Virus record (IMG/VR): IMGVR_UViG_3300045412_000261 | Location: 64,001-128,000 of that record | Origin: a virus | Reading direction: 5' to 3' (one strand) | DNA: 64,000 bases | Shown: positions 12,010-56,574 of the stretch, piece by piece | Layout: the number at the start of each line of letters is the position of its first letter | Numbering within the stretch: position 1 is the first letter of the stretch | Made by a program: the position numbers and the translations under genes | Notes under the pieces: model-generated | Databases searched by the model: none | What the model saw: only the letters and a program-made list of their open reading frames with translations | Told to the model about the DNA's origin: nothing

Positions 12010-13665
12010 TTAATAATCAAATTTAACAATAATATTTAAATCAACGTCATCTCTTTTCTTTATTGCCTGTCCCATTTTGCCTACTGCAATTAATTCATTG
12101 TATTTGTTATATAAACCAATAGTAGTTATATAAGGAGATAAAGATCCGGTAAAATCATCTAAATACTCCGTACTCTTAACAGTTTTAGTAGAAGAAGGGT
12201 TCAATGTAAGATTAAAATCACCTTTCTTGATTCTACACAACATTTCAAATTCATACAAAGTTAAAGTATTTTTGTAATAAAGAAACCAATTATTAGATAA
12301 AATTTCATGATATTTTTTATCTATGCTAGTTATTACTAAATTGCCTGTTCTGTAAAAAATATTTCCTACTCTATTTGTCTGATAACATGATATAGATGAT
12401 GTATTATATAAGCTAGATACATTTTGAGATGTTGCTGCCTTATTATAAAATCTTAATTCATCAATAAGTCCTGTATATCCATTTCTTCCATCAAATGAAG
12501 ATGCTCCTATCATAATATCACTCACATTAACAGTTTCATCTTTAACATCTGCTCTTGATGAATTTAATGTTCCATCTACATATAATTGAATATTTGATCC
12601 TGTCTTAACTAAACATACATGATGAAAATTATTATCTAAAATGGAATTAGATGATGTTAACTGCAATGTAGAAAATCCATCAGATCTAGTAAAAGATAAT
12701 TTTCCTGGATGTGGGTGGGTGTGATTATGTACAGAAAAATCGTATGGATAATAATTTACTGGGTAATATTTAAAAGAGGATGATGAAAAAACATCTGTCA
12801 CTAATAAATTACCTTTGTTTATTCTTTTTAATCTACCAAATTCTTCTCTATATAGTATGGATTTTTTGTCAATTAGTGTGTTTTTATTGCTAGTTAATAC
12901 GCTTTGAGATACTGGTGCTTTTAGCCAAAAACTTATTGTAAAATTATCCGCTGATTCAAAACTAACGGTATCAAAATTTTTAGTATGGATATAACCGTCT
13001 CCAAAAAATTCCGCAGCTAATCCTGTTCTAGTTCCATTGATAGGAATACCACTTGAGTAAGCTACTTGATACGCTTTTGATTTTTCTTGCGGTTCTATTA
13101 CTTCACTCTCGTATCTTATATACAAAGTCTTCTTTCCTCCTCTACCGTATCTATATGCCTTATGCGCATCCTGAAATCCCCAATATCCACACAAATTATC
13201 AGGATTTAAAAAAGAACTTGTATTTATACTTCGGTCATATAAATTATTGTGTCCATCATCTACTAAATGTAGATTATTATTTAATCCTTTTAAATATAAA
13301 GTTGTTTCTTTTACTTTATCTCCAAAATTTAAAGATGGTATTGATATTAGACTAGCAGTTAAAAAAAGATTTTTTGATGTTTTATTTCTATCCCATCCCT
13401 CTAATGAATTAGTCCATGTAAATCCTTTTTTATAGTATAAATGATTGAGAGACTTATAAACAATGTATTTATAAGACCCATCCGAATTTTTAGGATATGT
13501 TATATCTTTTGAAGAACTTATATGAATAGGTCCATTATAATAAAGTCCTTGTTGTACTTTATAACCTTGTTTAGAATAACTTCCGGTAAGAATATAATAC
13601 TCTTTATTCACCTCAAAAGGCGCAATATTAAAATCCTCACCTCTTATTGGCGCAAATGTACTCAT
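12010..13665 (-). CDS. Virion protein with a LamG/concanavalin A-like domain
   Basis: FTISFWLK...FHHVCLV...LYVDG...IDELRFYNKA; the C-terminal YITTIGLYN..ELIAVGK motif is shared with the next two ORFs. Confidence 0.8.
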   Translation of the reverse strand: MSTFAPIRGEDFNIAPFEVNKEYYILTGSYSKQGYKVQQGLYYNGPIHISSSKDITYPKNSDGSYKYIVYKSLNHLYYKKGFTWTNSLEGWDRNKTSKNLFLTASLISIPSLNFGDKVKETTLYLKGLNNNLHLVDDGHNNLYDRSINTSSFLNPDNLCGYWGFQDAHKAYRYGRGGKKTLYIRYESEVIEPQEKSKAYQVAYSSGIPINGTRTGLAAEFFGDGYIHTKNFDTVSFESADNFTISFWLKAPVSQSVLTSNKNTLIDKKSILYREEFGRLKRINKGNLLVTDVFSSSSFKYYPVNYYPYDFSVHNHTHPHPGKLSFTRSDGFSTLQLTSSNSILDNNFHHVCLVKTGSNIQLYVDGTLNSSRADVKDETVNVSDIMIGASSFDGRNGYTGLIDELRFYNKAATSQNVSSLYNTSSISCYQTNRVGNIFYRTGNLVITSIDKKYHEILSNNWFLYYKNTLTLYEFEMLCRIKKGDFNLTLNPSSTKTVKSTEYLDDFTGSLSPYITTIGLYNKYNELIAVGKMGQAIKKRDDVDLNIIVKFDY

Positions 13666-13666
13666 A

Positions 13667-16600
13667 TTAATACTTGAGTTTTACAGTAAAGATAGACTCC
13701 TCTGTAAAGTTTTTTAGTATAGGTTTAGTTAATTTACCTACAGCAACAAGTTCTCTTTGAGCATTATATAGACCTACGGTAGTAATATAAACTTGAGGAT
13801 TATTTACAAAATTTTCGTATATTTCCCCGTTTGTTTCGTTAAGTCTTTTAGCAAGCTCCTGTCCTTCCGGAGAATTAGGATCCAATGGCATAGATAAATC
13901 TCCTGGATTCGTTGGATTTTCTTTCTTGTTGTAAATAAAATAGCTGCTATTATTTGTAAAATTAAATTCTCTATTATTAATTCTTATAAAATAGTAATCA
14001 TTATATTCTCTAATTATCCTTCTAGCTTTCATTCCTAAATAATCTCCACTAATATCTTGAATTAGTGCAGATCCTGAGAATGATTTATATAATTTAATAC
14101 CATTATATCCTTCTATTTCTGATGCCTTTGATGTTGCAAAAGAAGCAGATAAATCTAATTTATTACCGTCTAAAATAGCTATGCCTAAAGAAGGGATTAA
14201 TTTACCGTAATAATGAGGATTAGATTCATTATAAACTCCTGTCTCTAAAGTTCCGGATACTATGTTATATGAATACCCTACATCTGTATAATCTGGGTTT
14301 ATATTTATTTTTGAATCGTCAATCAATCTTAAAACTTTATTGTTTCCGGCTAACTTTACATTTGATCCCGTATGAGTAGATATAGTTCCTCCTCCGGCTA
14401 AGAATTGAGAGCCTGATAGATGAGCAATATTGAGTTCTAAAACTCCTGCATCTAATCTATCTTTTAATCTTTTAGACTGATAATTAATAACATAAATACT
14501 ATCCGTTTCTTTTCCGGTAAGATTAAATTTAATATCTCTTTTTCCTAATACTAGATTTCTGTATTGTGCATAGATGGCTTTTGTTGGTGTAATGTTTATT
14601 TTATTACCTTCATCTAAAGATCCCGAACCGCCACTATGTCCATAAGCTATACTAAATTGAATAGAAGCTGTTAAGGACGTTTTTGGATTTTCATCATATA
14701 CATGTGTATAATATCTGCTGTAATTTTCAGAAGTACTTCCTGTAAAGAATGTAACTAAATTTCTTACATTGTTTGAGAATAGCCCTTCTGTTATATCAAA
14801 CACATATTTTCTATTATCTATTTGATTTATTTGCTTCAACCATGAAGCTCTAGGTATAAATCTAGTAGTTGTTGGAGGTGGGGGCGGCGGAGGTGGGGGC
14901 GGGGGCGGGGATACTGGTCCTGGTCCGCTAGGTACTGGAGGTGGGGGCAGTGTTCCAGGGTCAATTGGTCCTGTAGGTCCAGTAGGTCCTGTAGGTTCGG
15001 TAGGTCCTGTAGGTCCAGTAGGGGGAGTTCCTGTAAATCTAGTATAAGTAACTCTTAAATAATTTCCGAACTCTCTCCGCCCAGGAGGTACATTATCTTC
15101 AACTCTGTTTAAAACAAAAGTAGCCTGGGGAGGTGTTTCCCACCCTGTAACAGGGCTAAAAGTTATTGTATTTACCGAAGTTGATTTACTAAAATATTGT
15201 TTATTACCTATTTCGTAAGTATAGGAAGATGCAGAAGGTCCGAGTTGAGATAAAGTAATGTCTGTAAATGAAGGGACAGATAGACGCGTTGTTTTATCAT
15301 TAGATATTGTTACAATAGGCTTCGGAAAACTAGATGCGTTTAATATACGACCATTTTCTACAAATTGAACTTGAATTCTTAAAGTACCATCTTCTGAATA
15401 AATAGAACTTCCTCCTGTTTCTGTTCCTCCCCCTGGAGTTCCACAACTAGGATCAGGTGGATTAGAATCAAATCTATAATTAAACCCAGGTAAGTTTTGA
15501 TAGTCTTTTAAAAAATCATCTAATGTTTTTTGAGTTAAAGCGGGTTGATTTCCATCATAATATAAAGCTCTTGAAACTCTTTTAACCATACCTCCTTCGC
15601 AGTATACAACGTATATTGTTTTAGTATCCGGGATACATATAGGATTTTCTGGTTCTTTATCTATGGCAAAAGTGTAATTGCCTCTAATTAAAAAATCTTT
15701 GCTGTTTAATTCTCTAGATTTAAACTCTTGTAATTTAGCATTAAAATTAGATTCGCTTCCGTCAAAAGGAATATATGATGATGCTACATCATAATTTTTT
15801 ATAATTCCGTCTTCACAATACTTAACATTTACTTTTCTAAAAACAGGAGGGGGTGGAGTCCCTGTTCCAGTTGCACAAACAGCTTTAACCGGTTTTACGT
15901 CATAACTAGTAGCGAGTCCTCTACCAAAGCCTAAATTTTTAGCTGTATTTTCATAATCTATTTTCTTTTTTTCTAATTCAGATTCATTGTTATATTGTAT
16001 TGTTACAGAACTTTCTACCGCCCCTGATTCAGTACAATATGTAACATATAAAATTTTAGATTTTGATAAACAAGAAGGTATGGAAACAGGCTGAGTATCT
16101 ACTATGGCGTTTGGATCTATTAATCTATACTCTCTTTGAATAGAAGCTATTTTATTATTTCTATCATCATTTGAACTGACAGATATTGTTCTTATTCCAA
16201 ATCTTGGTTGACCGCCTTCACAATATGCGTAATATAAATTTACATTTGAACTAGATGGAGGCGAGCTAGGAGGAGTAGATGAAGTTCCAGGTCCAGTAGG
16301 TCCTTGTGGCGGTGAAACTATAGGTACGCAAGAAGATGGAGATGCAGGAGATAAAGTTACGGATACTTCTGTGAAACCTAAATTTTCTAAAGATCTCTGT
16401 ATGCCCCGTATTTTAACGGATCTATCATTTAAATCTGTATATGTTATTGTATCTCGAGTAAATACTGGTGTTGTATTATTACAATAGGTTATGTATATTG
16501 TAGATGATGTTGAACGTGATATATCTTCTATACCACCAAGATTTCCAAAATCAGGAGTAAAACATGTTATAGGGGGAGCGGGTGAATTTATTCCTATAGT

Positions 16601-16909
16601 GTAAGGAATGTTCGCAGCTCTATAATTACTAGTAGCTTGATCAATAGCATTTTGTATAGCATTAGGATCATTTGTATTTATATTATAGGTAAAACTAATA
16701 TTATTTGAATTATTATTTATGCAATAACTTATATTAACGGTTAAACTAGTTGTGCTTGGAGTTTTGGTTATAGGATTATTTGGATCATAAAACCATTGGT
16801 CATAGTTATTTTGATAATTCTGCCTATCAAAAAAAGATAAACTATTTAAAAAAGTTTGTTGATCTTGTTCAGATAGGTAATAAAATACTGCGTAATCTAT
16901 AAAATCCAT
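13667..16909 (-). CDS. Virion protein: six Cys-paired repeats, Pro-rich linker, and a C-terminal domain paralogous to 16944..18041
   Basis: The C-terminal ~390 aa align by eye with the 365-aa neighbour (QFSIAYG, TPT.AIY.QY, AHLSGSQF.AG, THTGSNVKLAGN, YITTVG.Y). Confidence 0.8.
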   Translation of the reverse strand: MDFIDYAVFYYLSEQDQQTFLNSLSFFDRQNYQNNYDQWFYDPNNPITKTPSTTSLTVNISYCINNNSNNISFTYNINTNDPNAIQNAIDQATSNYRAANIPYTIGINSPAPPITCFTPDFGNLGGIEDISRSTSSTIYITYCNNTTPVFTRDTITYTDLNDRSVKIRGIQRSLENLGFTEVSVTLSPASPSSCVPIVSPPQGPTGPGTSSTPPSSPPSSSNVNLYYAYCEGGQPRFGIRTISVSSNDDRNNKIASIQREYRLIDPNAIVDTQPVSIPSCLSKSKILYVTYCTESGAVESSVTIQYNNESELEKKKIDYENTAKNLGFGRGLATSYDVKPVKAVCATGTGTPPPPVFRKVNVKYCEDGIIKNYDVASSYIPFDGSESNFNAKLQEFKSRELNSKDFLIRGNYTFAIDKEPENPICIPDTKTIYVVYCEGGMVKRVSRALYYDGNQPALTQKTLDDFLKDYQNLPGFNYRFDSNPPDPSCGTPGGGTETGGSSIYSEDGTLRIQVQFVENGRILNASSFPKPIVTISNDKTTRLSVPSFTDITLSQLGPSASSYTYEIGNKQYFSKSTSVNTITFSPVTGWETPPQATFVLNRVEDNVPPGRREFGNYLRVTYTRFTGTPPTGPTGPTEPTGPTGPTGPIDPGTLPPPPVPSGPGPVSPPPPPPPPPPPPTTTRFIPRASWLKQINQIDNRKYVFDITEGLFSNNVRNLVTFFTGSTSENYSRYYTHVYDENPKTSLTASIQFSIAYGHSGGSGSLDEGNKINITPTKAIYAQYRNLVLGKRDIKFNLTGKETDSIYVINYQSKRLKDRLDAGVLELNIAHLSGSQFLAGGGTISTHTGSNVKLAGNNKVLRLIDDSKININPDYTDVGYSYNIVSGTLETGVYNESNPHYYGKLIPSLGIAILDGNKLDLSASFATSKASEIEGYNGIKLYKSFSGSALIQDISGDYLGMKARRIIREYNDYYFIRINNREFNFTNNSSYFIYNKKENPTNPGDLSMPLDPNSPEGQELAKRLNETNGEIYENFVNNPQVYITTVGLYNAQRELVAVGKLTKPILKNFTEESIFTVKLKY

Positions 16910-16943
16910 TTCACACTATGTTTTCGCTATTAAATATTGATTC

Positions 16944-18041
16944 TTAGAAATCTAATTTCACCTTCAAAAGAGCTTCTCTAGTGAAACTTTTTTGTAGAGG
17001 CTTTGACAGTTTAGCTACTGCAAGTAATTCATAAGAATCGGAATACATACCTACTGTTGTAATATACACTTTAGGATCATTTATAAAAGTAGGTTGAGCA
17101 AAATCTCCCTCCGACCCAGTTATGAAAGTTGGATTGTTACTAAAATTATATCTATCATTTCTGACTCTAACAAAATAATGGGTAGATTTTACTTTTTCAG
17201 AACTTCTAGCTTGGAATCCTAAATAATCCCCTGATAAATCTTGAAATTTAGCAGATCCAGACATAGACCTATATAATTTAAAAGCATTATCTCCGGCAAT
17301 TTCAGAACCAGAAACGGTACCAAACGAAGCTGATTTATCTAATGCTGCTCCATCCATTACAATAATGCCTAAATTTGGATACACTAAACCAAATTTTTTA
17401 GGACTGTTAGGGTTATGTATGCCAGATTCCAAAGATCCTGATACTAAATTATAAACTTTACCAGCGGTAGTTACAGAAGCGGGGTTAGATTTTGAATCGT
17501 CTATTAATCTTAAATATTTACTATTTCCAGCTAGTTTTACGTTTGAGCCAGTATGAGTAGCATTACTTCCAGGACCAGCAATAAATTGTGAGCCTGATAG
17601 ATGTGCTAAATTAATTTCTAGAGTTCCTACATCTAAGGATTCCCTTAATCTAGCTCTATTTACGTTAATTACATAAATACTATCAGAAGTTTTTCCGTTG
17701 ATTGTAAATTTCCTTTCTCCGGGATCTAAACATAATTGTTTATATTGTCCATAAATAGCTCTAGTTGGCGTATCATTTATTTGACCACCTTCATCAGCCG
17801 ATCCGGAACCATTGTATTGACCATAAGCAATACTAAATTGGGCTTCTGAACCTAATGCGTTTGAAGAGCTATTGAATATTTCATAATAATATCTCTTTTG
17901 TGTAGCCGTTTGTCCAGAAGATGTAAAAAAGGTAGTTAGGTTACCGTCATTATTAGAAAACAAGGCTCTAGTAATTACTTCCTCTTGGTTAGGTACAATA
18001 TCGGCTGTATTGAATGTAGTAAATATATCTGTGTTTGCCAT
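16944..18041 (-). CDS. Conserved virion (baseplate/tail-associated) structural protein
   Basis: Lies within the structural operon; ends VYITTVGMY...ELLAVAKLSKPLQK...KVKLDF. Confidence 0.7.
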   Translation of the reverse strand: MANTDIFTTFNTADIVPNQEEVITRALFSNNDGNLTTFFTSSGQTATQKRYYYEIFNSSSNALGSEAQFSIAYGQYNGSGSADEGGQINDTPTRAIYGQYKQLCLDPGERKFTINGKTSDSIYVINVNRARLRESLDVGTLEINLAHLSGSQFIAGPGSNATHTGSNVKLAGNSKYLRLIDDSKSNPASVTTAGKVYNLVSGSLESGIHNPNSPKKFGLVYPNLGIIVMDGAALDKSASFGTVSGSEIAGDNAFKLYRSMSGSAKFQDLSGDYLGFQARSSEKVKSTHYFVRVRNDRYNFSNNPTFITGSEGDFAQPTFINDPKVYITTVGMYSDSYELLAVAKLSKPLQKSFTREALLKVKLDF

Positions 18042-18056
18042 TTTTTAATTTATTAT

Positions 18057-18740: not shown

Positions 18741-18749
18741 TTTGTTTGT

Positions 18750-18779: not shown

Positions 18780-21700
18780 TTAAACTATTATTTGGTTTGC
18801 GCTAACTTCTCTGTATTCTACTACAGGTCCACCATCAATTGTATCTGTTGTGTCTACATTAAAATCTAATCCGGTTAATTTACAGCCAGTAAATCTAATT
18901 CTATTAGATACGGAGTCTTCGACATATTGATAATTAGCAGGTACTAAGGAAGATGAATAGTAATTTTTAGTGTTTATCAATGTTGCTAAATTTAAATTTT
19001 TTTGATATTGTGAGGAATAATTTACGGCGGTACTAGATGAATAATGATATACTACTTTCTTATATTTTAAATTAGATTTTTCAGATTGTATAATAGATTG
19101 AGTAACATATGAACTATTCCTATAAATGTTTCCAGCATCATTTATCACATATTCATTTTTATATAAATATTCTTTTAGCTGTAATTTAGTTAATGTAGAA
19201 TTAAAATTATGGAAACTAGATGAAAGAACATAATTATATGAATTATTATCATTGTAAAAATTATCAATATTAAAATTAGTAACTTTACCCACTATGTTTT
19301 CTATCTTATAAAATGAGGAATCCAATTTAAAATCATTAGATATTACATTTGTATTTCCATCATAAAAATTAATCTTTCTTCTATTTAATACTCTATTCTT
19401 ATATGTTCCATTTCTTTTAAATCTATATGCAATGTTTTCTTCTATAGATCCACTTCCATGTAACACATTGCCTATAAACGATAAATGTCTGTTTAAAGTT
19501 GCATATGATTCAATTAATTTTCTTTCATTATCAAAATAGTATAAGGATTCCATGTTTGATGTAATATCATTTTCTTCATTTGTATTAAGTAGATGTATAT
19601 TACCTTTTATATGTTCTAATGTTCCTAAATCTGAAATAGAGTATATGTTTGACATGTCTCTATTTATTTCTGAGATGTCAATTAGATTTTCATATTTATA
19701 TAAGTACGTGTCCCCGCCAAATTCATATAAATTACCTTTTTGATTTACTTTGTGAGATTCTAAATCTGAGAATACTAAAGAATAATCTCCATAGTAATTC
19801 AATGTAGATGTTATTTTTTCATGCTTAAAATCTGGAGTTATGGATATAGGTAATTCTGATTTATACTTCCTGTACTCTAATTCTAAATCAGGAGGCATTT
19901 CTGTATTTGTACTATATTTTATTTGTTCAAAATCAGGTGCTATATCAAATTCTAAAGATGACGTATATTTTTTATGTGATATTTCGACAGGAGGGGCATA
20001 GCTTATAGAACCTGTATACAAAATATATTCTCCTACCTGACTATCGGTTTTTATAATTGTTTTCTCATATTGTGGATTAGTTAGAGATGGATTTTTTCTA
20101 GCAACTTTAGCTCTCTCCAATACATTCTCTTCTAATAATATCCCTGCTATAAGATTTGCTCTAGCTGGAACTAATTGTTTTATCTGTTCAAATATGGAAT
20201 AATCATACAATGAAAATATCTCTATGTACTTGTTGTAATTATTTCTGTTTTTATATTTTTTCCAATAATTTTCCCTGTTTAGCCTAAGATTATTATACTC
20301 GTCTCTATATAAATCGGAAGGGTCTCCAATTAAATTATCTAAATCTATTCCTCCATATTGATTTGCTATATCTCTATTTACTTGGTCTGTAGGGCTAAAT
20401 ACTACAGCTAATTTATTTGAATCTACAGGGTCTGTATCAAAAGTATTTATTTGAACTCTTTTTTCCGAGGATAGTTGGTTTGTATAAAAAGATTCTTCTA
20501 TTCGTATTTTATCACTTTTAACTATACTCGCACCAATTGAAGGAGAATAGCTGTAGTAAATTTCTGAATATGGCTTGTATTGATTTTCTTGAGAACCTGT
20601 AAAACCTATAAAACTAGCTGTTGTATATTGTGATTTTACTCTATTTGGATGACTTGATGATACAAACTTATATGCAGAATGATTATATCTGAGAGCATCT
20701 ACGCCCATTGGGTAAAATCTATTTAACGTATCAAAAGAGGAAGTGTAAGAAGAACCATGATATGCAGCAGGGTTAAGTGTGTGTTCTTCAAATATTTTTT
20801 CAGAGTATATATCACTATAATCCTTATAAGCTTGTAAAAATCCTCTATATCTACTAGAATTTACTCCTGCAAATTGACTTCCCGTAGAACCCCCTAATAT
20901 TATATTATGAGGTATCAATAAGGAACTAGTTGATCCCCATGTAAATGATATATCAGCTGACGAAGTCACAATCATAGATCCAGAAAAACTAATCCAATTC
21001 TCAAAGTCACCACTAGATTTTTTCCACTCTATGTGTATAGAACCTGTTTTTTTAGTATTCGATATATTTCTATCTGTGTATATTCGAACATTCCAAGCAT
21101 CTCCGTCAAAAAAAGGATAGTACTTAGATTGTATTGTTTTTATTGTGAAAGAAGATGTTGAATTTGAAGTACTTTGAGCGCTTTTATATCTTAAATAGCC
21201 ATAAGCATAACTACCACTCCTTGATGAAGTAGAAAATGCTCTGTAACTTACTAGCTCTAAATTATTATATACTTTGTTACTATTTTTAGAATCCTCTATA
21301 GACCATAAACTCATACTAAGGCTAGATGAATTTGTTGTCCTAAACCTAAATTCAGATACACGAGGTGCGGAAACCTGATTTTCATTTGGAGGGATTGATT
21401 GTCCCCACGGAATTTTTACAAATTGATTTCCGTCAAATTTTAGTAAATACTGATATCTGTAACTTTTATGCGTCGGGTTGTACTTAGGAGGTCTTGCTCC
21501 ACCGTATTCCTTTATGCTAATTAATGTCTGAGGTATTCCATATATAGACAATAGCGTTTTTAAACTACGTTCTGTGCCCTTTGTTTTTAAAAGAGTCGGT
21601 ATGTTATTTACTATTCTTCTCCAAATCTGATGTGTGAGATATTCATGAGCCTGAGAAGCTAAAGTACCGGTTTCTAAAAAACTTCCTGTATTATCAGTAC

Positions 21701-43605: not shown

Positions 43606-43606
43606 C

Positions 43607-43981: not shown

Positions 43982-44701
43982 ATGAAATTTTTATATCCTA
44001 CTATAATATCGGGTTCTGGTAATTTTAAAGGACATTTTACAGGTTCTTTTTCTGGTGACGGATCTAATTTATTGAATGTCATATCATATACTAATTCCGA
44101 TACTTTAAGTTATATAAATTCTAGAAATGTTGTATCTGGATCATCTCAAATATCATATCCATCAATATCTAATAGACCTCCATTCATAATATCTGGAAGT
44201 GGCATGTATTTTAATGGAAACAATATTGGGATAGGTGTAAAAAATCCATCATCTAAATTTCAAATATCTGGATCTTCGTCATCTTTAGTCAATGTAACAA
44301 GAGGTGGTAATTCATATTTTTACATTAGCGGTAGCGGAAATATTGGAGTATCTACAACATCTCCTACTCATAAATTTACTATAAGCGGTTCTTTAAAAAC
44401 TACAACTATAGCGGATTCATCTAACTCTATAGGTTCTTTAAATCAAGTTCTAACATCTACCGGAAATTCATTATCCTGGATTAATCCACTAATAAAACAA
44501 ATTCAAATAGGTTCCACCTTAATAGGAACTACTTCTAGCGATATTAATTTTTCTACACCTTTTACTAATACTCCGGTAGTTGTATTGTCATCTGCCGTAG
44601 GAGCAGCTATTTCTATAACATCAATAACAACTACTTTTTTTAGGGTAACTAATCCGACATCGGCTCATACAATATACTGGATAGCTGTTACATTAAACTA
44701 A
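43982..44701 (+). CDS. Short fibre protein with a C-terminal H-type-lectin/gp53-like domain
   Basis: Shared N-terminus, GNIGIG..P repeats, ending INFSTPFTNTPVVV...SITTTFF...YWIAV. Confidence 0.7.
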   Translation: MKFLYPTIISGSGNFKGHFTGSFSGDGSNLLNVISYTNSDTLSYINSRNVVSGSSQISYPSISNRPPFIISGSGMYFNGNNIGIGVKNPSSKFQISGSSSSLVNVTRGGNSYFYISGSGNIGVSTTSPTHKFTISGSLKTTTIADSSNSIGSLNQVLTSTGNSLSWINPLIKQIQIGSTLIGTTSSDINFSTPFTNTPVVVLSSAVGAAISITSITTTFFRVTNPTSAHTIYWIAVTLN

Positions 44702-47700: not shown

Positions 47701-48480
47701 TCTTTACAAAACGCAGTAACTTTAGATAACCAACTACCTTCTTATTATTTAGACTATAATAATCTTACTAATGTTCCCCCAACAAGTAGTGGTGATGGTT
47801 TTCCTTTTGCCGGAGACGCGGTTATAACAGGTTCATTATTAGTATCAGGATCTAAGGTAGATTTTTCAAAAGCTAAAGTAATATCAGGTTCTTTATTTTC
47901 CGGTTCATTTGTTGGAGACGGAAGCGGGTTAACAGGAATAACGGTATCGGAAGTTGCTACAATTCAAGCAACTTTTGTATCTATATATAGCGCTTCTATA
48001 AATCATAACTTTAATTCTAGAAATGTAAACGTAGCAGTTTATGATAGTAGCAATAGACTATTTTTCCCTGATTCAATAACTCTTCCAACATTAAATAGAG
48101 TTGATATAACTTTTTCTGGTCCTACTTCCGGATATGCAGTAATATCTAAAGGAGGACATATTGTTTCTGCTATATCATCCATATCAGGTAGTGGAACCGA
48201 CGGTAGATTAGCAAAGTTCAAAGGTTCTAACTATGTAACAGGTAGTTTAATACAAGAAAGTACAGCTGGTATAAAATTAGTTGGTAATATGCAATTAACA
48301 GGATCTTTTGCTGTTTCCGGTAGTAGAACTTCGGGCGGGGCTAGATTTTTAGCATCAATGACTATCCCAGTGGGAACAACAGCACAAAGACCCATAAGTC
48401 CACTAGCAGGATCCATTAGATTTAACACAAGTACAAATTTATTGGAGATATATACAGGTACTACATGGAGAACTATTTAA
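44722..48480 (+). CDS. Long repetitive fibre with eight tandem ~130-150-aa modules
   Basis: Eight copies of GFPF.G.A.ITGS...SGSFVGDGS...HNFNS.NVNV.VYD...FFPDSI...SG...GY.V.SKGGH; C-terminal IPVGTTAQRP...GSIRFNT. Confidence 0.85.
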   Translation: MRILFPTIFSGSGYFSGSLEGDGSRLYNIVSSSYALTASYALNNNGVGFPFIGNAKITGSLSISGSNVDFTNVRAISGSIFSGSFVGDGSGLTGITVSQVATAKSNFHAVYSASVYHNFNSRNVNVSVYDNNNRLFFPDSIVLSTPNRVDITFSGPSTGYAVVSKGGHIIEPASGSGIGFPFSGSAVITGSFLVSGSKVDFTKVQVISGSIFSGSFVGDGSGLTGLTVSQVATVQHSFVSTYSASINHNFNSRNVNVAVYDNNNKLFFPDSITLATPDRVDLRFSGISSGYAVVSKGGHLVTGVYPISGSGIGFPFSGSAVITGSLLVSGSHVDFTNVKAISGSIFSGSFVGDGSNLTGLTISQIATVQHTFTSVLSASINHNFNSRNVNVAVYDTNNKLFFPDSIRLTTPNIVDVTFSGLSSGYVVISKGGHLVTGVAIPSGSGVGFPFSGSAVITGSLFVSGSHVDLTNVKAISGSIFSGSFVGDGSGLTGLTISQVATVQSNFTSVFSASVNHNFNSRNVNVSVYDTNNKLFFPDSITLTTPNRVDIIFSGLSSGYVVVSKGGHLIAPSSGSGIGFPFSGSAVITGSLLVSGSHVDFTNVKAISGSIFSGSFVGDGSNLTGITVSQATTVQSNFTSVYSASVNHNFNSRNVNVAVYDTNNKLFFPDSITLSTLNRADIIFSGLSSGYVVVSKGGHILSGSLQNAVTLDNQLPSYYLDYNNLTNVPPTSSGDGFPFAGDAVITGSLLVSGSKVDFSKAKVISGSLFSGSFVGDGSGLTGITVSEIATIQSTFNSVYSASINHNFNSKNINVAVYDNNDKLFFPDSITLATPNRVDIIFSGLSSGYVVVSKGGHIVTGTYPISGSGIGFPFSGKAVITGSLFVSGSKVDFTNVKAISGSIFSGSFVGDGSNLTGITVSQATTVQSNFTSVYSASVNHNFNSRNVNVAVYDTNNKLFFPDSITLSTLNRADIIFSGLSSGYVVVSKGGHILSGSLQNAVTLDNQLPSYYLDYNNLTNVPPTSSGDGFPFAGDAVITGSLLVSGSKVDFSKAKVISGSLFSGSFVGDGSGLTGITVSEVATIQATFVSIYSASINHNFNSRNVNVAVYDSSNRLFFPDSITLPTLNRVDITFSGPTSGYAVISKGGHIVSAISSISGSGTDGRLAKFKGSNYVTGSLIQESTAGIKLVGNMQLTGSFAVSGSRTSGGARFLASMTIPVGTTAQRPISPLAGSIRFNTSTNLLEIYTGTTWRTI
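46513..47948. repeat. 563-bp near-perfect direct repeat (46513-47075 and 47386-47948)
   Basis: Offset 873 bp; I found one mismatch (47031 C vs 47904 T). Confidence 0.9.
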
Positions 48481-48997: not shown

Positions 48998-51900
48998 ATG
49001 AGAATAGACAAATTAACAGTATCTAGTTCAATACAAATAATAGATAGTAATAAGAATCCATTACAAATAAATGATAATGTTCTATTTGTTTCTAGTAGTG
49101 GAAATGTAGGTATAGGAACATTAAATCCAAAACATAAATTACAAGTACATGGAGTGGTATCTGCTTCTGTATTTTTAGGAGATGGAAGTGGACTAACTGG
49201 AATATCAAATATAACTTTTGCTAGTTTAACGGGAAAACCAACAGGACTTGTTAGTAGTTCAGCCCAATTAGCTAACACTACAATTCCGGGTAATTTAACT
49301 ATATCTGGTAAATTAACTGCTGAGGAATATTTTACTGAATTTGTTAGCGCATCTATTATATACAAATCAGGTTCTTCTAAGTTTGGTAATAGTCTTAATG
49401 ATAAGCATCAATTTACTGGATCTATGTATGTTACAGGTTCAGTTAGAGCCACTAGTTTTATAGGTGACGGAAGCGGATTAACAGGAGTTTTACTAGAGGG
49501 AGATTTTACACATACTGCATCTTTTACTAATACTACTAACGCAACAGTAGTACATAACCTAAATACTAAAAATGTTGTAGTATCTGTTTATGATACTACT
49601 AACAAATTAATTATTCCTGATGAGATTATATTAACAAACGATAATACGGTTAATGTATTATTTGTTAATCCTCGTTCTGGATTTGCAGTAGTTAATACCG
49701 GAGGTCATATTGTATCCGGAACTTCATATAATATAACTGAGTATAATAATATTTTAAATAAGCCAGTAGGTATAGTATCAGGTTCGTCTCAAATACTATA
49801 TTCCGGCATATCTAATAAACCTACAAATTTAATATCAGGATCTTCTCAAGTATCTTATTCCGGAATAATAAACAAACCAACAGGGATTATTAGTAGCTCC
49901 GCTCAATTAGCAAATGCTACCATTCCTGGAAATTTGACAGTTTCAGGAAAAATAACAGCAGAAGAGTTTCACACAGAATTTGTAAGCGCGTCAATAGTTT
50001 ATAAATCGGGGTCATCTAAATTTGGAAACAGTTTAGATGATAGGCACCAGTTTACCGGTTCTGTAAGTATCACAGGTTCTTTAAGAGCTTCTTCCTTTAT
50101 AGGTGATGGTAGTGGTTTAATAAATGTCCCTAATGCAAATATAGGTTCTAACTTTGGAAGATTGAACAGTTATGCAATATATAATACCACATCCTCATTA
50201 ACTAGAGCTAGATTATACGATGCTCCGATAACTTGGGAAATGAGAGATGATTTTGGAATTGTAGTATCAGAAAATGTTAGAAAGGCAGGACCTTCTACAT
50301 ACTTAAAAATTGCTCCTACTACATCATCTTATAATGCCACATTACATTCTATACAAGCGTATGGTACATCATCTTATGTTTCAGCTAAAGCAACTAGTGT
50401 ATCATCAATAGCTGCTTTTGGATTGAATAATGACCCAAGAGCTAATACTCTTTTTACTAGTATAGATTACGCATGGTTATTAGCTACAGGATCTTCTAGA
50501 ATCTACGAAGGAACTACTTTTGTCGGTACCTTTGGAACTCACACAACAGATACAGAACACAGTATTGAGTTTGCGGGCTCTAATGTAATTTATAAAAAAG
50601 CAGGAGTAGTTCAAAGATCTGTATTTAGAAATACTAGACATGCCCTAGCCTTAGACACAGCTTTTACTAATAACAATGAACAAGGATTAAAGAATCTTAT
50701 ATTTTCGGCATCTGGTAGTATAGAAGATAATAATTGGACATCTGTAACATGGTCTCCACAATTAGAAAGATATGTTGCAGTAGCAGAGTCCGGATTATAC
50801 CCTATAGCATATTCTACAGATGCTACCAACTGGATTCCGGCAAGTTTAGACGAGCCTATAACTTGGACTAGAAATTTTTTAGGCACAGGAGTAGTTGAGT
50901 CTGGAAGTAATCATTTTAGAAAAACTTCGGGTACAACTGCCTTTAATGCCTCTGTTTATTCTTCGGAGAGATACCCTAGATTGGTATACACTCAAGCAAG
51001 ATATAGTGCACAATCAACCGTAGGATCTCTGATGTTTGGATTAAATACTGATCCGGCGGTATCTGCAAATTATGAGTCTATAGATTACGCTTTTTATGTT
51101 ATTGATGGGACACTCCAAATATATGAGAGTAGTGTGGTGAGTAATCTTTCTGCTTCATTTAATACTTATACATCAACTACAGTACTTAGAATAGAATATG
51201 ATGGAACATACGTGAGTTATTTAAGAGATGGAGTTACAGTAAGAAGAGTACAAAGAAATCTATCCGGATCTTTAGGATTTGACACGTCTTTTAATTCCGT
51301 TACTCCTACTGGCGGGATAAGAGATGTGGAATTTGGACTCAGATATACTCCAAACCATCAATGGTCTTCAGTTACTTGGTCTCCGCAACTAGGTCTATTT
51401 GTTGCAGTATCAAAAACAGGTACTAGAAGAATTAGAACTTCATCAAACGGTATAAATTGGAATAGAATACAAGAACCTGAATCAAACGCATGGGAATCTG
51501 TTATATGGTCGCCTGAATTAGCTTTGTTTGTAGCCGTTTCGAGTACAGGAACAAGTAGAGTAATGACCTCTTCTGATGGAGTAACATGGACATCTAGAAC
51601 CGCCGCCGAGCAAAACAGCTGGGTTTCTGTAGCATGGTCTCCTTCTTTGTCTTTATTTGTTGCAGTGTCTAGTGACGGTACAAATAGAGTAATGACTTCT
51701 TCTAATGGAATAACATGGGCTACTAGATCAGCAGCTCAACAAAATAGTTGGGATTCAATCGCATGGTCTCCTGAATTAGGTTTATTTGCAGCGGTTTCCA
51801 CAGATGGTGTAAATAGAGTTATGACCTCAACTAATGGTATAAATTGGATTGCTAGATTAGCAGCAGAGCAAAATAGCTGGAAATCTATTACATGGTCTCC

Positions 51901-52450
51901 GGACATACTAATGTTTATGGCTGTAGCTAGTAGTGGGACTAATAGGAGCATGTATTCCCGAGATGGGATTACCTGGGTATCTTTAGCAACTCCTAGACAA
52001 AACGAATGGACATCCGTCGTATGGTCTCCTAGAAATAGTTCTTTTGTAGCCGTTGCTAGAACAGGTATTCAAAGAGTTATGGAGTCTGTTCAAAAAACGT
52101 CTTTAAATTCATTAAATCCGACAACAGGCTTTGTTGTATCAGCGACTGACGCAATACAATTACCTGCTGGTACGGAAGGACAAAGACCGGAGCTTGCAGG
52201 TAGGGGCATGATTAGATATAATACGAGTAGAGATAGAATGGAGTACTATGGTAGTAGATGGACAGGTTTATCTGACGATAATAACTCTGGAATCCTCCCA
52301 ATAGGATCTACCGCTCAAAGAGTTGCTTTACCACAAACAGGATCTATAAGATTTAATACTCAAACTAGAAGAGTAGAAGTATTTACAGGATTTGGAGGAT
52401 TTGATGGTAGAGGATGGAATACTTTAGTTTTCTCAGGTAGTGCTGTATAA
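48998..52450 (+). CDS. Fibre/adhesin with two ConA/SPRY-like domains and a 7-repeat beta-propeller
   Basis: Seven W.S(V/I).WSP...(F/Y).AV repeats with a 43-aa period; two ITW...FGLN.DP...SIDYA domains; two P.G...QR...G.IR.N motifs. Confidence 0.8.
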   Translation: MRIDKLTVSSSIQIIDSNKNPLQINDNVLFVSSSGNVGIGTLNPKHKLQVHGVVSASVFLGDGSGLTGISNITFASLTGKPTGLVSSSAQLANTTIPGNLTISGKLTAEEYFTEFVSASIIYKSGSSKFGNSLNDKHQFTGSMYVTGSVRATSFIGDGSGLTGVLLEGDFTHTASFTNTTNATVVHNLNTKNVVVSVYDTTNKLIIPDEIILTNDNTVNVLFVNPRSGFAVVNTGGHIVSGTSYNITEYNNILNKPVGIVSGSSQILYSGISNKPTNLISGSSQVSYSGIINKPTGIISSSAQLANATIPGNLTVSGKITAEEFHTEFVSASIVYKSGSSKFGNSLDDRHQFTGSVSITGSLRASSFIGDGSGLINVPNANIGSNFGRLNSYAIYNTTSSLTRARLYDAPITWEMRDDFGIVVSENVRKAGPSTYLKIAPTTSSYNATLHSIQAYGTSSYVSAKATSVSSIAAFGLNNDPRANTLFTSIDYAWLLATGSSRIYEGTTFVGTFGTHTTDTEHSIEFAGSNVIYKKAGVVQRSVFRNTRHALALDTAFTNNNEQGLKNLIFSASGSIEDNNWTSVTWSPQLERYVAVAESGLYPIAYSTDATNWIPASLDEPITWTRNFLGTGVVESGSNHFRKTSGTTAFNASVYSSERYPRLVYTQARYSAQSTVGSLMFGLNTDPAVSANYESIDYAFYVIDGTLQIYESSVVSNLSASFNTYTSTTVLRIEYDGTYVSYLRDGVTVRRVQRNLSGSLGFDTSFNSVTPTGGIRDVEFGLRYTPNHQWSSVTWSPQLGLFVAVSKTGTRRIRTSSNGINWNRIQEPESNAWESVIWSPELALFVAVSSTGTSRVMTSSDGVTWTSRTAAEQNSWVSVAWSPSLSLFVAVSSDGTNRVMTSSNGITWATRSAAQQNSWDSIAWSPELGLFAAVSTDGVNRVMTSTNGINWIARLAAEQNSWKSITWSPDILMFMAVASSGTNRSMYSRDGITWVSLATPRQNEWTSVVWSPRNSSFVAVARTGIQRVMESVQKTSLNSLNPTTGFVVSATDAIQLPAGTEGQRPELAGRGMIRYNTSRDRMEYYGSRWTGLSDDNNSGILPIGSTAQRVALPQTGSIRFNTQTRRVEVFTGFGGFDGRGWNTLVFSGSAV

Positions 52451-52467
52451 AAATAAAAAATTAAAAA

Positions 52468-53721
52468 ATGAAAGTAGAAAAATTAACTGGGATATTTACA
52501 GGTTCTTTTATTGGAGATGGCTCTCAATTGTCCGGAGTTGTATCCTATACTAATACAGATACTCTAAATTATATAAATTCTAGAAATGTTATTTCCGGAT
52601 CTACCCAAGTTTCTTTTACAGGACTTAGAAATAGACCTACTTTAGTTTCCGGTTCATCTCAAATATCTTTCGCAGGTATAACAAATAAACCGTCTATTAT
52701 ATCTGGAAGTGGTGTTAATGCATACATACCAGTATATCAAGGTAAGAATTTTATAGCTTCTAGTTCTTTATTTCAGACAGGAAGTAATATTAGAATCCAA
52801 TCAACAGGTTATTTACAAATACCTGTAGGAACAACTGGACAAAGAATATTTTCCCCTCCCGGTTCAATAAGATATAATACAACATTAGGAGTAGCCGAAA
52901 TATACAGCGGAACTAGCTGGGTTTCGTTTGCGGAGGGGTCTTATACAATAGAATATATAGTAGTTGCCGGGGGAGGTAGTGGTGGTCAAGGTGGAGGAGG
53001 AGGAGGAGGTGCCGGCGGATTTCTCTCAGGATCCTTGGTTGTGCAAAAAAATAGAACTTATCCAATAACGATAGGTGCAGGAGCAGCAGCAACACCAAAC
53101 TCAGCAGGTCCTGGTGATGTAAATGGTTTAAGTGGAAATAACTCTAGTATATCAGATATAATAGTATGTATAGGCGGTGGAGGAGGTGGAGCTTTCGTTA
53201 CTAATAACTCAGGTCTTTCAGGAGGTTCCGGTGGCGGTGGAGGAGCTACAGTAGGATCCACAGGAGGAGCCGGTAATAGTCCACAAGGGAAAAGAGGTGG
53301 AGACACTGTTTCAAGCAATCTTGGAGCAGGCGGAGGCGGTGGCGCTATGGTTAACGGAGGCGCAGGGCAGCCAACCGCGGGTACAGGAGGCGCAGGAGCT
53401 ACAACTAGATTCACAGGACCTATAACCTCATACGCAGGAGGAGGTGGAGGTGGAGAGTATGGAGGCACGGCTGCCGCAGGTGGTGTTGGAGGAGGTGGTA
53501 CAGGGAATAGTAACTCAAATGGAACCGCTGGTACAGTAAATACAGGTGGAGGCGGTGGTGGTGGTTCTTTCAACACTACTTTCTTTGGAGGGGGTGCCGG
53601 AGGTTCGGGTATAGTAATCTTAAAGTATTACGGAGGACCAAAAGGAATAGGAGGCATAGCTACAACATGGTCCGGTTCTACTATTCATACTTTTACAGGA
53701 GCAGGTTCCTTTACAGCATAA
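52468..53721 (+). CDS. Fibre with a C-terminal Gly-rich adhesin domain
   Basis: TGSFIGDGSQLSGV.SYTNTDTLNYINS shared with 40859; IEYIVVAGGG...GGSGIVILKY...HTFT. Confidence 0.8.
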   Translation: MKVEKLTGIFTGSFIGDGSQLSGVVSYTNTDTLNYINSRNVISGSTQVSFTGLRNRPTLVSGSSQISFAGITNKPSIISGSGVNAYIPVYQGKNFIASSSLFQTGSNIRIQSTGYLQIPVGTTGQRIFSPPGSIRYNTTLGVAEIYSGTSWVSFAEGSYTIEYIVVAGGGSGGQGGGGGGGAGGFLSGSLVVQKNRTYPITIGAGAAATPNSAGPGDVNGLSGNNSSISDIIVCIGGGGGGAFVTNNSGLSGGSGGGGGATVGSTGGAGNSPQGKRGGDTVSSNLGAGGGGGAMVNGGAGQPTAGTGGAGATTRFTGPITSYAGGGGGGEYGGTAAAGGVGGGGTGNSNSNGTAGTVNTGGGGGGGSFNTTFFGGGAGGSGIVILKYYGGPKGIGGIATTWSGSTIHTFTGAGSFTA

Positions 53722-53747
53722 TTTATATAACATAATAAAAAAACAAA

Positions 53748-54281: not shown

Positions 54282-54322
54282 ATGTTTTATATATTTTTTC
54301 GATTTTAAAATAATGTAATAAA

Positions 54323-55782: not shown

Positions 55783-55816
55783 AGTGTGTTCGTGTTTTAA
55801 ATAGTAATAATAAGCG

Positions 55817-55847
55817 CAAATATAATAAAAACAATCCACTTACGCAA
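55817..55847 (-). promoter_or_regulatory. Bacteroidota-type sigma70 promoter (TTG-N20-TATATTTG)
   Basis: -7 element at 55817-55824 and -33 TTG at 55845-55847, upstream of the YopX gene. Confidence 0.75.
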
Positions 55848-55896
55848 CTATTTTTTTAATTTTTACGTTAAATAATTGTTTATAACATTGTATATC

Positions 55897-56574
55897 ATGA
55901 TTATATCTCACAAATATAAATGTATCTTCATAAGAATTCCAAAGACCGGTTCAACTAGTGTAGAGACATATTTAAAAGAAGTTGACCCGGATTGTATTTC
56001 ATCAGGGGATAAACCTCCGTATGGGCACGACACATGTTCTCAATTACTAGAACAGCATGGTCATACAATATGGAACTCTTATTATAAATTTACTTTCATT
56101 CGAGAGCCTTATCAGTGGTACAAATCCTACTACTCGGATCTTTTGAATTATTCATGGGATAAAGATAGTGAACTAGCAAAAAAAAGTTTAGGTTTAATAT
56201 TGACAGATGATAATACTTTACCCGAACCTGTTAATTACACATTATATGAAAAGCACATAATTATAATTCAATTACTCAATGATTTTTGGTTTTATCCTAC
56301 TATAAATGAAAATATAATGGATAGTCATGTAACTCAAGTATCTTGGATAGATAAACCCATTAATTTTATTGGAAGAACAGAATTTTTAGATGAAGATTTT
56401 AGGGATATATGTAATAAATTAAGTATTCCATTTACAGAATTAAAAAGATTGAATACATCAGATTCACATAAATTAAGTCATAGTGAAGGATCTAAAAGAC
56501 TGATAAAATGTTTAGCGGAAAAAGATTTAGAATTATACTACAATCTAAAACCTTTAACAAATAATCGTTATTAA
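55897..56574 (+). CDS. PAPS-dependent sulfotransferase (Sulfotransfer_2-like)
   Basis: MIISHKYKCIFIRIPKTGSTS (5'-PSB loop), FTFIREPY..Y.SYY (3'-PB), FIGRTEFL.EDF; likely start at 55897. Confidence 0.82.
   Translation: MIISHKYKCIFIRIPKTGSTSVETYLKEVDPDCISSGDKPPYGHDTCSQLLEQHGHTIWNSYYKFTFIREPYQWYKSYYSDLLNYSWDKDSELAKKSLGLILTDDNTLPEPVNYTLYEKHIIIIQLLNDFWFYPTINENIMDSHVTQVSWIDKPINFIGRTEFLDEDFRDICNKLSIPFTELKRLNTSDSHKLSHSEGSKRLIKCLAEKDLELYYNLKPLTNNRY

Follow-up and report, generated by a model that had tools for sequence, protein, structure and literature searches.

To our knowledge, glycosylation of the virion by a phage has been demonstrated only for a few mycobacteriophages, and we know of no acceptor motif. 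Outside the phages, sugars are attached to serine in recognisable contexts. Proteoglycans carry glycosaminoglycans at Ser-Gly with clustered acidic residues. In bacterial adhesins, GtfA/GtfB modify serine-rich repeat proteins and heptosyltransferases modify the beta-helix repeats of AIDA-I/TibA; these enzymes are soluble GT-B proteins that act before export on Ser in S-x-S-type repeats or strand-loop-strand motifs. An excerpt of an article (PMC12619734, citing Freeman et al. 2023, Cell Host Microbe) describes mycobacteriophages whose own glycosyltransferases (GTs) glycosylate the virion proteins in the cytoplasm, the glycans sitting at the C-termini of capsid and tail-tube subunits and forming a shield. 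Chlorovirus capsids, according to an excerpt of PMC9614988, are glycosylated at atypical sequons by enzymes that the virus itself encodes. Here, we analysed the tripeptide Ser/Thr-Gly-Ser ([ST]GS) in the virion proteins of an uncultured water phage, together with the glycan-related enzymes encoded on the same contig (IMG/VR record IMGVR_UViG_3300045412_000261). Our tentative proposal is that phage-directed O-glycosylation uses [ST]GS as its acceptor or recognition site.

The window, the whole stretch of 64,000 nucleotides considered here, comprises bases 64001-128000 of a single contig of 142,581 bp. Judged by its genes, the phage is a T4-type 'far-T4' myovirus and the window is its late half. 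Pfam and PHROG matches to T4-type genes in the window comprise portal Gp20, TerL, gp25-like and gp6-like wedge proteins and a tail-fibre chaperone; the major capsid protein Gp23, the sheath, three tube paralogs, the hub, the prohead protease and PhoH lie just upstream. By capsid protein, the nearest named phages are Microcystis phage Mel-JY01 (59.7% identity), Flavobacterium phage vB_FspM_immuto (54.3%, hereafter immuto) and Rhodothermus phage RM378 (36.0%). A Bacteroidota host, as assumed in the initial annotation of this DNA, is only a possibility.

Excess and location of the [ST]GS tripeptide

The motif statistics, the distribution of the motif, the family membership of the enzymes and the position of the collagen lysines are direct results of the analysis. 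Open reading frames (ORFs) were called on the whole contig, giving 157 ORFs that cover 96% of its bases and contain 183 [ST]GS. The division into virion and non-virion proteins was our own, made from coordinates and from Pfam and PHROG matches, and eight enzymes of the late block were moved to the non-virion side (the GT-hydroxylase fusion described below, PhoH, the prohead protease, TerL, a 210-aa ORF, SbcCD, a primase-like protein and endonuclease I). On this division, 175 motifs occurred in 50 virion-module ORFs (22,013 aa) and 8 in the 107 other ORFs (23,488 aa). Exclusion of eight fibre/collagen proteins from the virion module left a core set of 42 proteins (15,367 aa), which contained 47 [ST]GS as against 13.7 in whole-protein shuffles (0/500 reached 47). 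Non-virion ORFs contained 8, with 8.8 in shuffles. The genome-wide comparison of virion and non-virion proteins, which the initial annotation had suggested as a check, confined the excess to the virion set. The manual counts given there were exact, namely 7 in a 365-aa protein (0.69 expected from composition), 11 in a 1485-aa protein (1.46) and 7 in a 151-aa protein (0.71), with none in TerL, the SbcCD fusion or the gp6-like wedge.

It is scarcely credible that the excess is an artefact of composition, of repeats and paralogs, or of a DNA-level motif. Virion proteins are indeed richer in Ser, Thr and Gly, and repeats and one paralog pair inflate the raw counts. Shuffling within 12-residue blocks, however, yielded 15.5 motifs against the 47 observed in core proteins (0/200). 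Residues 706-1080 of a 1080-aa protein are 48% identical to the 365-aa protein (E 2e-109), with four [ST]GS sites and one SGT in common, so that the sites of the two proteins are not independent; when the 1080-aa protein was excluded, 42 motifs were found against 12.4 (0/500). The order of residues also mattered. In core proteins SGS occurred 22 times, compared with 10 for SSG and 8 for GSS, and TGS occurred 25 times, compared with SGT 10, GST 8, GTS 8, STG 2 and TSG 2. Among tripeptides of the form [ST]xS, enrichment was seen with x = G (3.57-fold) and x = S (2.66-fold) and with no other x. Composition and low complexity were rejected as the source by the whole-protein shuffles, the block shuffles and these permutation counts. 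More than 30 codon triplet combinations encode the motif, the commonest accounting for 11/183, and because the codons are so diverse the signal lies at the protein rather than the DNA level; a DNA-level motif was rejected on the same ground. Three contexts could be distinguished, collagen, fibre beta-repeats and scattered sites in globular virion proteins, the last of which carry the statistics.

The baseplate-module proteins and their neighbours are as follows (window coordinates).

12010..13665, minus strand: 551-aa outer baseplate protein, Laminin_G_3 (LamG-like, E 3e-19), PHROG baseplate/tail matches, 3 [ST]GS
13667..16909, minus strand: 1080-aa protein with N-terminal repeats, a 12-Pro linker and the C-terminal paralog of the 365-aa protein, 5 [ST]GS
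16944..18041, minus strand: 365-aa conserved virion protein, 7 [ST]GS
18780..23237, minus strand: 1485-aa outer baseplate protein, 11 [ST]GS
23234..25378, minus strand: 714-aa protein, Pfam Collagen without Y-position Lys, then (TTS)n and (TG)4 tracts
25378..26502, minus strand: 374-aa baseplate-module protein, 3 [ST]GS (0.40 expected)

An excess was found in the capsid protein (3 against 0.62 expected), the sheath (4 against 0.51) and a gp13-like neck protein (4 against 0.26), as well as in the baseplate-module proteins of 374, 1485, 365, 1080 and 551 aa and in the fibres. No [ST]GS occurred in the portal, the three tube paralogs, the hub, the gp6-like and gp25-like proteins, the scaffold/core proteins or two large unassigned proteins of 650 and 672 aa. 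From T4 anatomy, we take the motif-bearing group to face outward and the motif-free group to be buried. With 'outward-facing' assigned in this way, by protein or domain identity and T4 anatomy, [ST]GS is restricted to outward-facing proteins or domains.

The capsid motifs of this phage lie at residues 170, 183 and 258 of 547. Across 90 full-length cluster representatives of the family, 33-61% identical to the query, 172 [ST]GS were counted where 55.5 were expected. With the query added (91 sequences), at least one motif was present in 76, and 137 of the 175 motifs fell in the segment aligned to query residues 150-299, which is the least conserved part of the protein (column conservation 0.27-0.29 versus 0.41-0.61 elsewhere). 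SGS occurred 91 times in this segment against 15.6 expected. The other tripeptides there were GSS 16, SSG 21, TGS 46, SGT 30, AGS 21, NGS 6 (8.1 expected) and DGS 12 (9.8 expected); since NGS and DGS are near expectation, generic turn-formers are not enriched. The 175 motifs were spread over 81 alignment columns, the top two of which were occupied in 16 and 14 sequences, and SGS occupied 60 columns against 26-29 for its permutations, although alignment of this hypervariable segment is uncertain and may inflate column counts, tripeptide counts being independent of alignment. We read this pattern as one in which motif positions would turn over while their number is kept. Query sites in the capsid, sheath, 1485-aa, 374-aa and neck proteins were mostly not retained in immuto, RM378 or T4; immuto homologs kept 2/11 sites of the 1485-aa protein and 1/3 and 0/4 in two further proteins.

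In the sheath family (121 sequences, 57-98% identical to the query), 683 motifs fell into 28 columns, all within query residues 1-335 and outside the Pfam sheath core at 337-606. Two sites were SGS in 121/121 and 120/121 sequences; invariant sites align with query residues 62-64 and 250-252. At two others Ser was kept while the middle residue varied, the counts being SGS 80, SAS 22, SSS 8 and TGS 6 at one, and SGS 43, SSS 41, SAS 8 and TGS 7 at the other. An AlphaFold2 (AF2) model of the sheath (pLDDT 68.9) matched T4 gp18M over residues 24-450 (Z 18.8, rmsd 3.5 Å over 297 residues).

Both the sheath and the 365-aa protein belong to families of more than 7,000 relatives. Among four distant homologs of the 365-aa protein, VSGS was kept in 4/4, reaching as far as RM378 at 26% identity, GSGS in 3 and the ITGS-type site in 2, and the number of [ST]GS fell from 7 in the query to 4, 4, 3 and 1. 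The AF2 model of this protein was of moderate quality (pLDDT 64.5). Its fold gave nothing at E <= 0.001 with Foldseek against the PDB, a best Z of 3.6 with VIA-align, and 0 matches in a PDB profile search. Separately, the paralog family spans window positions 16944-18041, 13667-14794 and 12010-12330, all on the minus strand. Weak similarity to the 365-aa family (BLASTP 27% identity, E 2e-6) extends over the C-terminal ~100 aa of the 551-aa protein, which have in common with it the ending YITT(V/I)GLYN...AV(A/G)K...K(L/F)D(F/Y). Many 365-aa relatives have an extra N-terminal domain and a Pro/Gly-rich linker, like the 1080-aa protein.

Candidate glycosyltransferases and alternative roles for the motif

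Pfam scans for enzymes covered 53 window ORFs and 100 ORFs elsewhere on the contig, 153 in total. No GT family was found among the window ORFs, in agreement with the initial annotation. Its suggestion to look further afield for GTs, 2-oxoglutarate (2OG)-Fe hydroxylases and synthesis of 3'-phosphoadenosine 5'-phosphosulfate (PAPS) was borne out for the first two, with GTs and two 2OG-Fe(II) oxygenases present on the rest of the contig, and failed for the third, with no PAPS synthesis gene found among the 153 ORFs. Five ORFs scored above Pfam GT cut-offs (two GT2, one each of GT8, GT4 and GT25) and two scored below. The following lie outside the window.

GT2 of 456 aa, GT8 of 246 aa, GT2 of 256 aa and GT4 of 497 aa (Pfam)
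GT-B matches of 309 aa and of 428 aa, both too weak to pass Pfam cut-offs
methyltransferases, an NAD-dependent sugar epimerase/dehydratase and a subtilase (Pfam)

One GT had a weak match to Glyco_transf_7C (20.7 bits, cut-off 23). Relaxing Pfam to E 0.5 on eight unassigned ORFs of the GT island added nothing, and searches of the PDB with the 456-aa GT2 and the GT8 returned 0 matches each. A further 418-aa protein (genome 17952-19208, L001:17952-19208:-) was similar to clusters of hydroxyproline O-arabinosyltransferase (HPAT) in a protein-atlas search (score 0.91-0.92), which is a lead only.

Comparison with related phages associated part of this set with the motif excess. Shared by immuto and our phage, in a syntenic island that adjoins a PD-(D/E)XK nuclease gene, are the GT4 and GT1 of the tandem (48% and 47% identity), a GT2 (31%), the 456-aa GT2 (37%) and two small ORFs; immuto has no GT8, 309-aa GT, fusion enzyme, epimerase or sulfotransferase. 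GT4 was also present in Mel-JY01, LR756508 and RM378, and the GT1 beside it in immuto, in Mel-JY01 and, as a weak match, in RM378. Neither GT4 nor GT1 occurs in T4, and the cyanophage DSL-LC03 has no GT4. Observed and expected counts of the motif were as follows.

immuto, 51 structural-block ORFs: SGS 61 observed, 13.2 expected; TGS 45 observed, 14.0 expected
immuto, 166 other ORFs: SGS 4 observed, 7.0 expected; TGS 8 observed, 6.9 expected
T4, 27 virion proteins, 10,204 aa: SGS 1 observed, 3.3 expected; TGS 0 observed, 3.6 expected
cyanophage DSL-LC03, 12 virion proteins, 5,393 aa: SGS 3 observed, 2.5 expected; TGS 3 observed, 2.8 expected

SGT (37 versus 14.0) and TGT (28 versus 15.0) were also raised in the immuto structural ORFs. 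In RM378, a mostly structural stretch of 33.6 kb with 34 annotated coding sequences contained 12 [ST]GS against 3.9 expected. A generic property of T4-like virions was rejected, as T4 and DSL-LC03 have no excess; because immuto and RM378 do have it, the excess is a trait of the far-T4 clade. Of the co-occurrence across related phages that the initial annotation had proposed to look for, the GT4/GT1 pair followed the excess and the sulfotransferase did not.

The best solved relative of the GT4 was B736L of chlorovirus NY-2A (E 4.3e-9), and in the PDB the GT pair matched B736L, trehalose synthases and similar enzymes, not GtfA/B. B736L is a GT-B enzyme that binds GDP-mannose, and its acceptor substrate is described as unknown in the excerpt of PMC9614988. 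In Mel-JY01, the GT4 homolog (PP395634.1 83441-84929) lies in two adjacent pieces with a stop codon between them; a split gene, a frameshift or an error in sequencing could each explain this.

Three things are inferred from these results: the attachment of any sugar, the use of [ST]GS as its site and the identity of the enzyme. In the proposed mechanism, the outer parts of the particle (the variable capsid segment, the outer sheath domains, the neck, the outer baseplate and the fibres) would present, in the usual case, a hydrophobic strand-end residue, Ser/Thr-Gly-Ser and then a loop. The motif would be the acceptor or recognition site for O-glycosylation in the cytoplasm by phage-encoded GTs, the prime candidates being the tandem GT4/GT1 pair conserved across the clade. 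Five observations favour a sequon-like function: specificity for order and residue, positional turnover, restriction to outer parts, the sheath sites at which Ser is kept, and co-occurrence with the GT pair across the clade. The kinship of the GT4 with B736L, the collagen-modifying fusion enzyme with its Y-position lysines, and the genomic setting of two distant sulfotransferase homologs, the last two described below, also speak for the mechanism as a whole.

The motif could instead be an unmodified structural element, a strand exit or tight turn that the beta-rich outer domains and fibre repeats of the clade would favour, with the GTs acting on poly-Thr, collagen hydroxylysine, DNA or host polysaccharide. 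We regard this as a real, if somewhat doubtful, alternative. Much of the evidence for it also counts against glycosylation of [ST]GS, and it is set out here with the other points that weigh in that direction. The flanks are hydrophobic, with I, F, V or L at position -1 in 118/183 motifs and hydrophobic flank residues at 24/47 and 25/47 in core proteins against a background of 0.34. In both AF2 models, of the 365-aa protein and the sheath, a strand stops at the first Ser and the loop starts with Gly-Ser, as at S62 and S250 of the sheath. In the 365-aa family (30 homologs), 18 of the 21 motif residues were at least 90% conserved, compared with 151/365 overall (Fisher p 3e-5), and sites are common to the paralog; such invariance fits a purely structural role as well. 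Two sheath sites keep Gly with other flanks (NGI, YGT, WGQ). Many motifs lie in regular fibre repeats of a known Pfam family (PF06598), where they join three-residue strands, and the 20 within Gly-X-Y runs, of which the 1536-aa protein has 14, the 1187-aa protein 5 and the 714-aa protein 1, are not independent signal, as they are by-products of Ser-rich Gly-X-Lys collagen; Lys follows 13 of these. The presumably internal tape-measure-like protein has 4 [ST]GS against 1.83 expected. The (TTS)n tract of the 714-aa protein would, on its sequence, be a more conventional O-glycan-type acceptor than [ST]GS. As to the enzymes, no initiating enzyme was identified for glycosylation of the motif, and the island could serve DNA or host-surface glycans instead. 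All genomes with the excess form one clade, so that co-occurrence with the GT pair counts phylogenetically as a single event and is weak evidence. The HPAT-like 418-aa protein was rejected as the enzyme of the motif, being absent from 5/5 records (immuto, RM378, Mel-JY01, LR756508 and T4) although immuto shows the excess. A literature search on Mel-JY01, immuto and RM378 gave no mass-spectrometric, structural or proteomic study of the virion among the matches listed, and a further search found no paper on a Ser-Gly-Ser motif in phage O-glycosylation.

Other observations do not sit well with a purely structural role. NGS, DGS, SGN, SGD and AGS are near or below expectation, and homologous T4 and cyanophage proteins of the same fold have no motif. 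Capsid sites are not fixed but turn over among the 81 columns of the hypervariable segment, and two sheath sites keep Ser and not Gly. The structural and sequon roles are also compatible, since an enzyme can recognise a strand-loop motif.

A surface site without a glycan would account equally for the confinement to outer parts, the order specificity and the positional turnover. Such a site might bear another Ser modification (phosphate, acyl or methyl-linked), dock decoration proteins or fibres, or reflect selection by environmental proteases, and the phage does encode methyltransferases and a subtilase. Nothing ties these enzymes to the motif, though, no kinase or acyltransferase was found among the ORFs scanned with Pfam, and the only enzymes common to immuto and this phage are GTs, besides small unknown proteins. 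We consider this explanation distinctly improbable.

Fibre collagen, probable sulfation and associated features

The window encodes the fibre proteins listed here. The first lies outside the range 12010..56574 of the initial annotation and was counted as part of the feature.

2926..7536, minus strand: 1536-aa collagen-like tail fibre, Pfam Collagen (E 1.2e-56), Peptidase_S74 C-terminal chaperone, HINT/intein-like insert, 18 [ST]GS, 14 of them in Gly-X-Y
36846..40409, plus strand: 1187-aa fibre, shared N-terminal module, Gly-X-Lys collagen, Ig-like units, Gly_rich_2 end, 25 [ST]GS
40859..41314, plus strand: 151-aa short fibre protein, shared N-terminal module, 7 [ST]GS
43982..44701, plus strand: 239-aa fibre protein, shared N-terminal module, 7 [ST]GS
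44722..48480, plus strand: 1252-aa fibre, ~190-aa repeats, PF06598, Ig-like domains, 49 [ST]GS
48998..52450, plus strand: 1150-aa fibre, beta-propeller-like repeats, 14 [ST]GS
52468..53721, plus strand: 417-aa fibre, Gly_rich_2 domain, 7 [ST]GS

These counts bear out the initial description of the motif as running throughout the fibres, including inside collagen as GPSGSKG. Its claim of Gly-X-Lys collagen was likewise correct. Lys was found only in the Y position of the 158 triplets of the 1536-aa fibre (59/59) and the 84 triplets of the 1187-aa fibre (39/39), 98/98 altogether; in the third collagen protein, of 714 aa, Lys occupied the Y position in 0/2 cases. This placement is the substrate geometry of collagen lysyl hydroxylases.

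A 760-aa fusion protein, encoded in the late module between a neck gene and PhoH, has the domain order GT1-like, GT25, hydroxylase/oxygenase. Its C-terminal domain matched human LH3 (E 2.2e-22) and mimivirus L230 (E 8.6e-19), and its HHDDS, THRH and GVRY aligned with HHDSS, THYH and GTRY of LH3, which hold the ligands of Fe and 2OG. The middle part matched human COLGALT1 (E 1.2e-13) and Glyco_transf_25 (60.1 bits, cut-off 24). No full-length homolog was found among 50,697 phage records, only partial ones with coverage of at most 43%, mostly from Synechococcus phages. Among the matches listed in a literature search, nothing relevant linked a lysyl hydroxylase with phage collagen-like proteins. 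On the sequence evidence, the lysines of the fibre collagen are probably hydroxylated and glycosylated; the fused GT25-lysyl hydroxylase would act on those in the Y position.

Other tracts of the kinds named in the initial annotation were also present: the 714-aa protein has (TTS)n (residues 432-474), the 1080-aa protein 12 Pro in a row (window 14860-14910) and the 1536-aa fibre PSPSPS. The second 2OG-Fe(II) oxygenase (195 aa, genome 4079-4666) was closest to the PKHD/PiuC type (E 7e-8) and matched prolyl 4-hydroxylase weakly (E 0.004). Taken with the HPAT-like protein and the Pro12 linker, this PKHD-type hydroxylase suggests a putative extensin-like arm of hydroxyproline glycosylation. The (TTS)n and Pro-rich linkers, with the HPAT-like GT lead and the PKHD-type hydroxylase, may form an arm separate from that of [ST]GS.

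The initial annotation also noted a sulfotransferase gene after the fibre/lysis block.

55876..56574, plus strand: Sulfotransfer_2 (PF03567) sulfotransferase, Pfam 37.5 bits (cut-off 22)

This assignment was sound (E 3.7e-9). Translation probably begins with the ATG at 55897 and yields 225 aa, because homologs are of that length. PAPS sulfotransferases bind the 5'-phosphosulfate through a PKxGxT-type loop and the 3'-phosphate through an RxP...S motif; the translation contains RIPKTGSTS and FIREPYQWYKS, corresponding to the loop and to the RxP motif. Only 29 homolog clusters were found, 28 with PF03567, and a PDB search gave noise only. The gene had no match in the 50,697 phage records and is absent from immuto and Mel-JY01. 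Among 23 IMG/VR loci with the gene, 14 were 88-93% identical, and as far as their contigs reach its position was fixed in 14/14, in the order 177-aa ORF, amidase, YopX (minus strand), sulfotransferase, 169-aa ORF, ParB, ParB. Five of the nine more distant loci were scanned. Three, at ~40% identity (L028, L029 and L030) the nearest relatives beyond its own lineage, are giant-virus contigs with the NCLDV capsid protein, VLTF3 and the P9 minor capsid protein; one at 30% adjoins an epimerase, a GT25 and a collagen gene, and one at 29% lies inside a nucleotide-sugar/GT cluster. The gene thus encodes a genuine accessory enzyme, confined to a narrow lineage, whose most likely substrate is a glycan made by the virus. 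Only in that lineage would PAPS-dependent sulfation, probably of a glycan made by the phage, be part of the mechanism. Since relatives with the same excess do not have the gene, it is not a core part of what causes the clade-wide motif, and a place for it in a core coat system could not be upheld. No phage sulfotransferase acting on virions was described among the literature matches listed.

The initial annotation had drawn an analogy from proteoglycans; on this reading, Ser-Gly would be xylosylated and extended into a sulfated glycosaminoglycan-like chain. Ser-Gly and a Sulfotransfer_2 enzyme are present, and the Glyco_transf_7C match below cut-off points the same way. Against this, the flanks are hydrophobic and depleted of acidic residues (0.053 within four residues on either side, background 0.117), and neither a GT14/xylosyltransferase family nor a PAPS synthesis gene was found by Pfam in the 153 ORFs, where remote homologs are possible. 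With the sulfotransferase also missing from relatives that show the excess, a proteoglycan-like coat is very unlikely. Of the O-glycosylation idea as first formulated, the enzymes, the Y-position lysines and the motif excess have stood, while the proteoglycan analogy and the core role of the sulfotransferase have not.

Several further features of the fibres were recorded. The 1252-aa fibre consists of short strands joined by hydrophobic-[ST]GS-hydrophobic and FVGDGSGLTGI, alternating with Ig-like domains, in strings such as AVI-TGS-LLV-SGS-HVDF...AI-SGS-IF-SGS-FVGDGSGLTGI. It matched the Chlorovirus glycoprotein repeat (PF06598; 57.4 bits, cut-off 27) and had 0 matches in the PDB; a literature search found no paper naming 'Chlorovirus glycoprotein repeat'. 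Four fibre genes open with a ~30-aa module, PTII-SGS-GYF-SGS-F-x-GDGS-x-L (window 36846-36940, 40859-40950, 43982-44080 and 44722-44815, plus strand), which probably gives interchangeable fibres the same end for attachment to the baseplate. In the 1150-aa fibre, residues ~780-1030 (window 51300-52100, plus strand) contain about six repeats of W-x-S-V-x-W-S-P-x-L-x-L-F-V-A-V-S...G...R-V-M-T-S, beta-propeller-like and with weak WD40-type Pfam matches; this region is probably the receptor-binding head.

Two small paralogous ORFs (window 40421-40846 and 48593-48955, plus strand) each precede a fibre gene and match PHROG 7759 (E 2.9e-43 and 3.4e-40); they may be fibre assembly factors. The HINT/intein-like domain of the 1536-aa fibre, ~120 aa at residues 989-1110 (window 4207-4572, minus strand), lies between two collagen segments and scored below cut-off for both Intein_splicing (E 1.2e-7, 32.1 bits, cut-off 35.8) and PT-HINT (24 bits, cut-off 27.7). 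It starts with Cys and ends with His-Asn, and because it is followed by Met, and not by Cys, Ser or Thr, the domain may cleave rather than splice.

A possible combined coat and known glycosylation systems

The widest form of the proposal is that the whole aquatic far-T4 clade uses a cytoplasmic O-glycosylation sequon (hydrophobic residue plus Ser/Thr-Gly-Ser), to which this phage would add hydroxylysine-glycosylated collagen, Thr/Pro-rich linkers and glycan sulfation, giving a sulfated coat resembling extracellular matrix and made with a toolkit shared with giant viruses. As a whole, this is unlikely. Four links of the surface toolkit to giant viruses were seen, namely the sulfotransferase relatives, the B736L-like GT4, the L230-like hydroxylase and the chlorovirus repeat, and these are relevant to the exchange of genes between phages and eukaryotic viruses. 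If [ST]GS is indeed a sequon, so short a motif would let glycosylated phages be recognised from metagenome sequence, and effects of surface glycans on adsorption, particle stability, grazing and immune recognition would become testable. Even a purely structural motif would mark the outer domains of this clade with a clean signature. The collagen arm, if true, would extend to phages a hydroxylysine glycosylation so far known from animals and giant viruses.

The known systems resemble this one in different respects. Like proteoglycan attachment sites, the motif contains the Ser-Gly dipeptide, and a carbohydrate-type sulfotransferase is encoded; unlike them, it has hydrophobic flanks and no acidic cluster, and Pfam found no xylosyltransferase family here. 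The adhesin systems differ in that no sequence link to them was found, the PDB matches of the GT pair not being GtfA/B. As in the mycobacteriophages, a tailed phage carries its own GTs. The candidate sites here are instead internal in the capsid protein, the tube paralogs have none, and a defined tripeptide is proposed, from sequence alone. With the chloroviruses, our phage has in common the proposal of virus-made surface glycans at non-canonical motifs, a GT4 nearest to B736L and the chlorovirus repeat in a fibre, whereas chlorovirus sites, in the excerpt cited above, are N-linked (NTXT and similar) and the hosts are eukaryotic algae. Mimivirus L230 and animal LH3/PLOD3 and COLGALT1 share with the 760-aa protein a homologous hydroxylase domain, a GT25-like domain and a collagen substrate with Lys in the Y position; unlike them, the phage enzyme combines GT1-like, GT25 and hydroxylase domains, in that order, in one protein.

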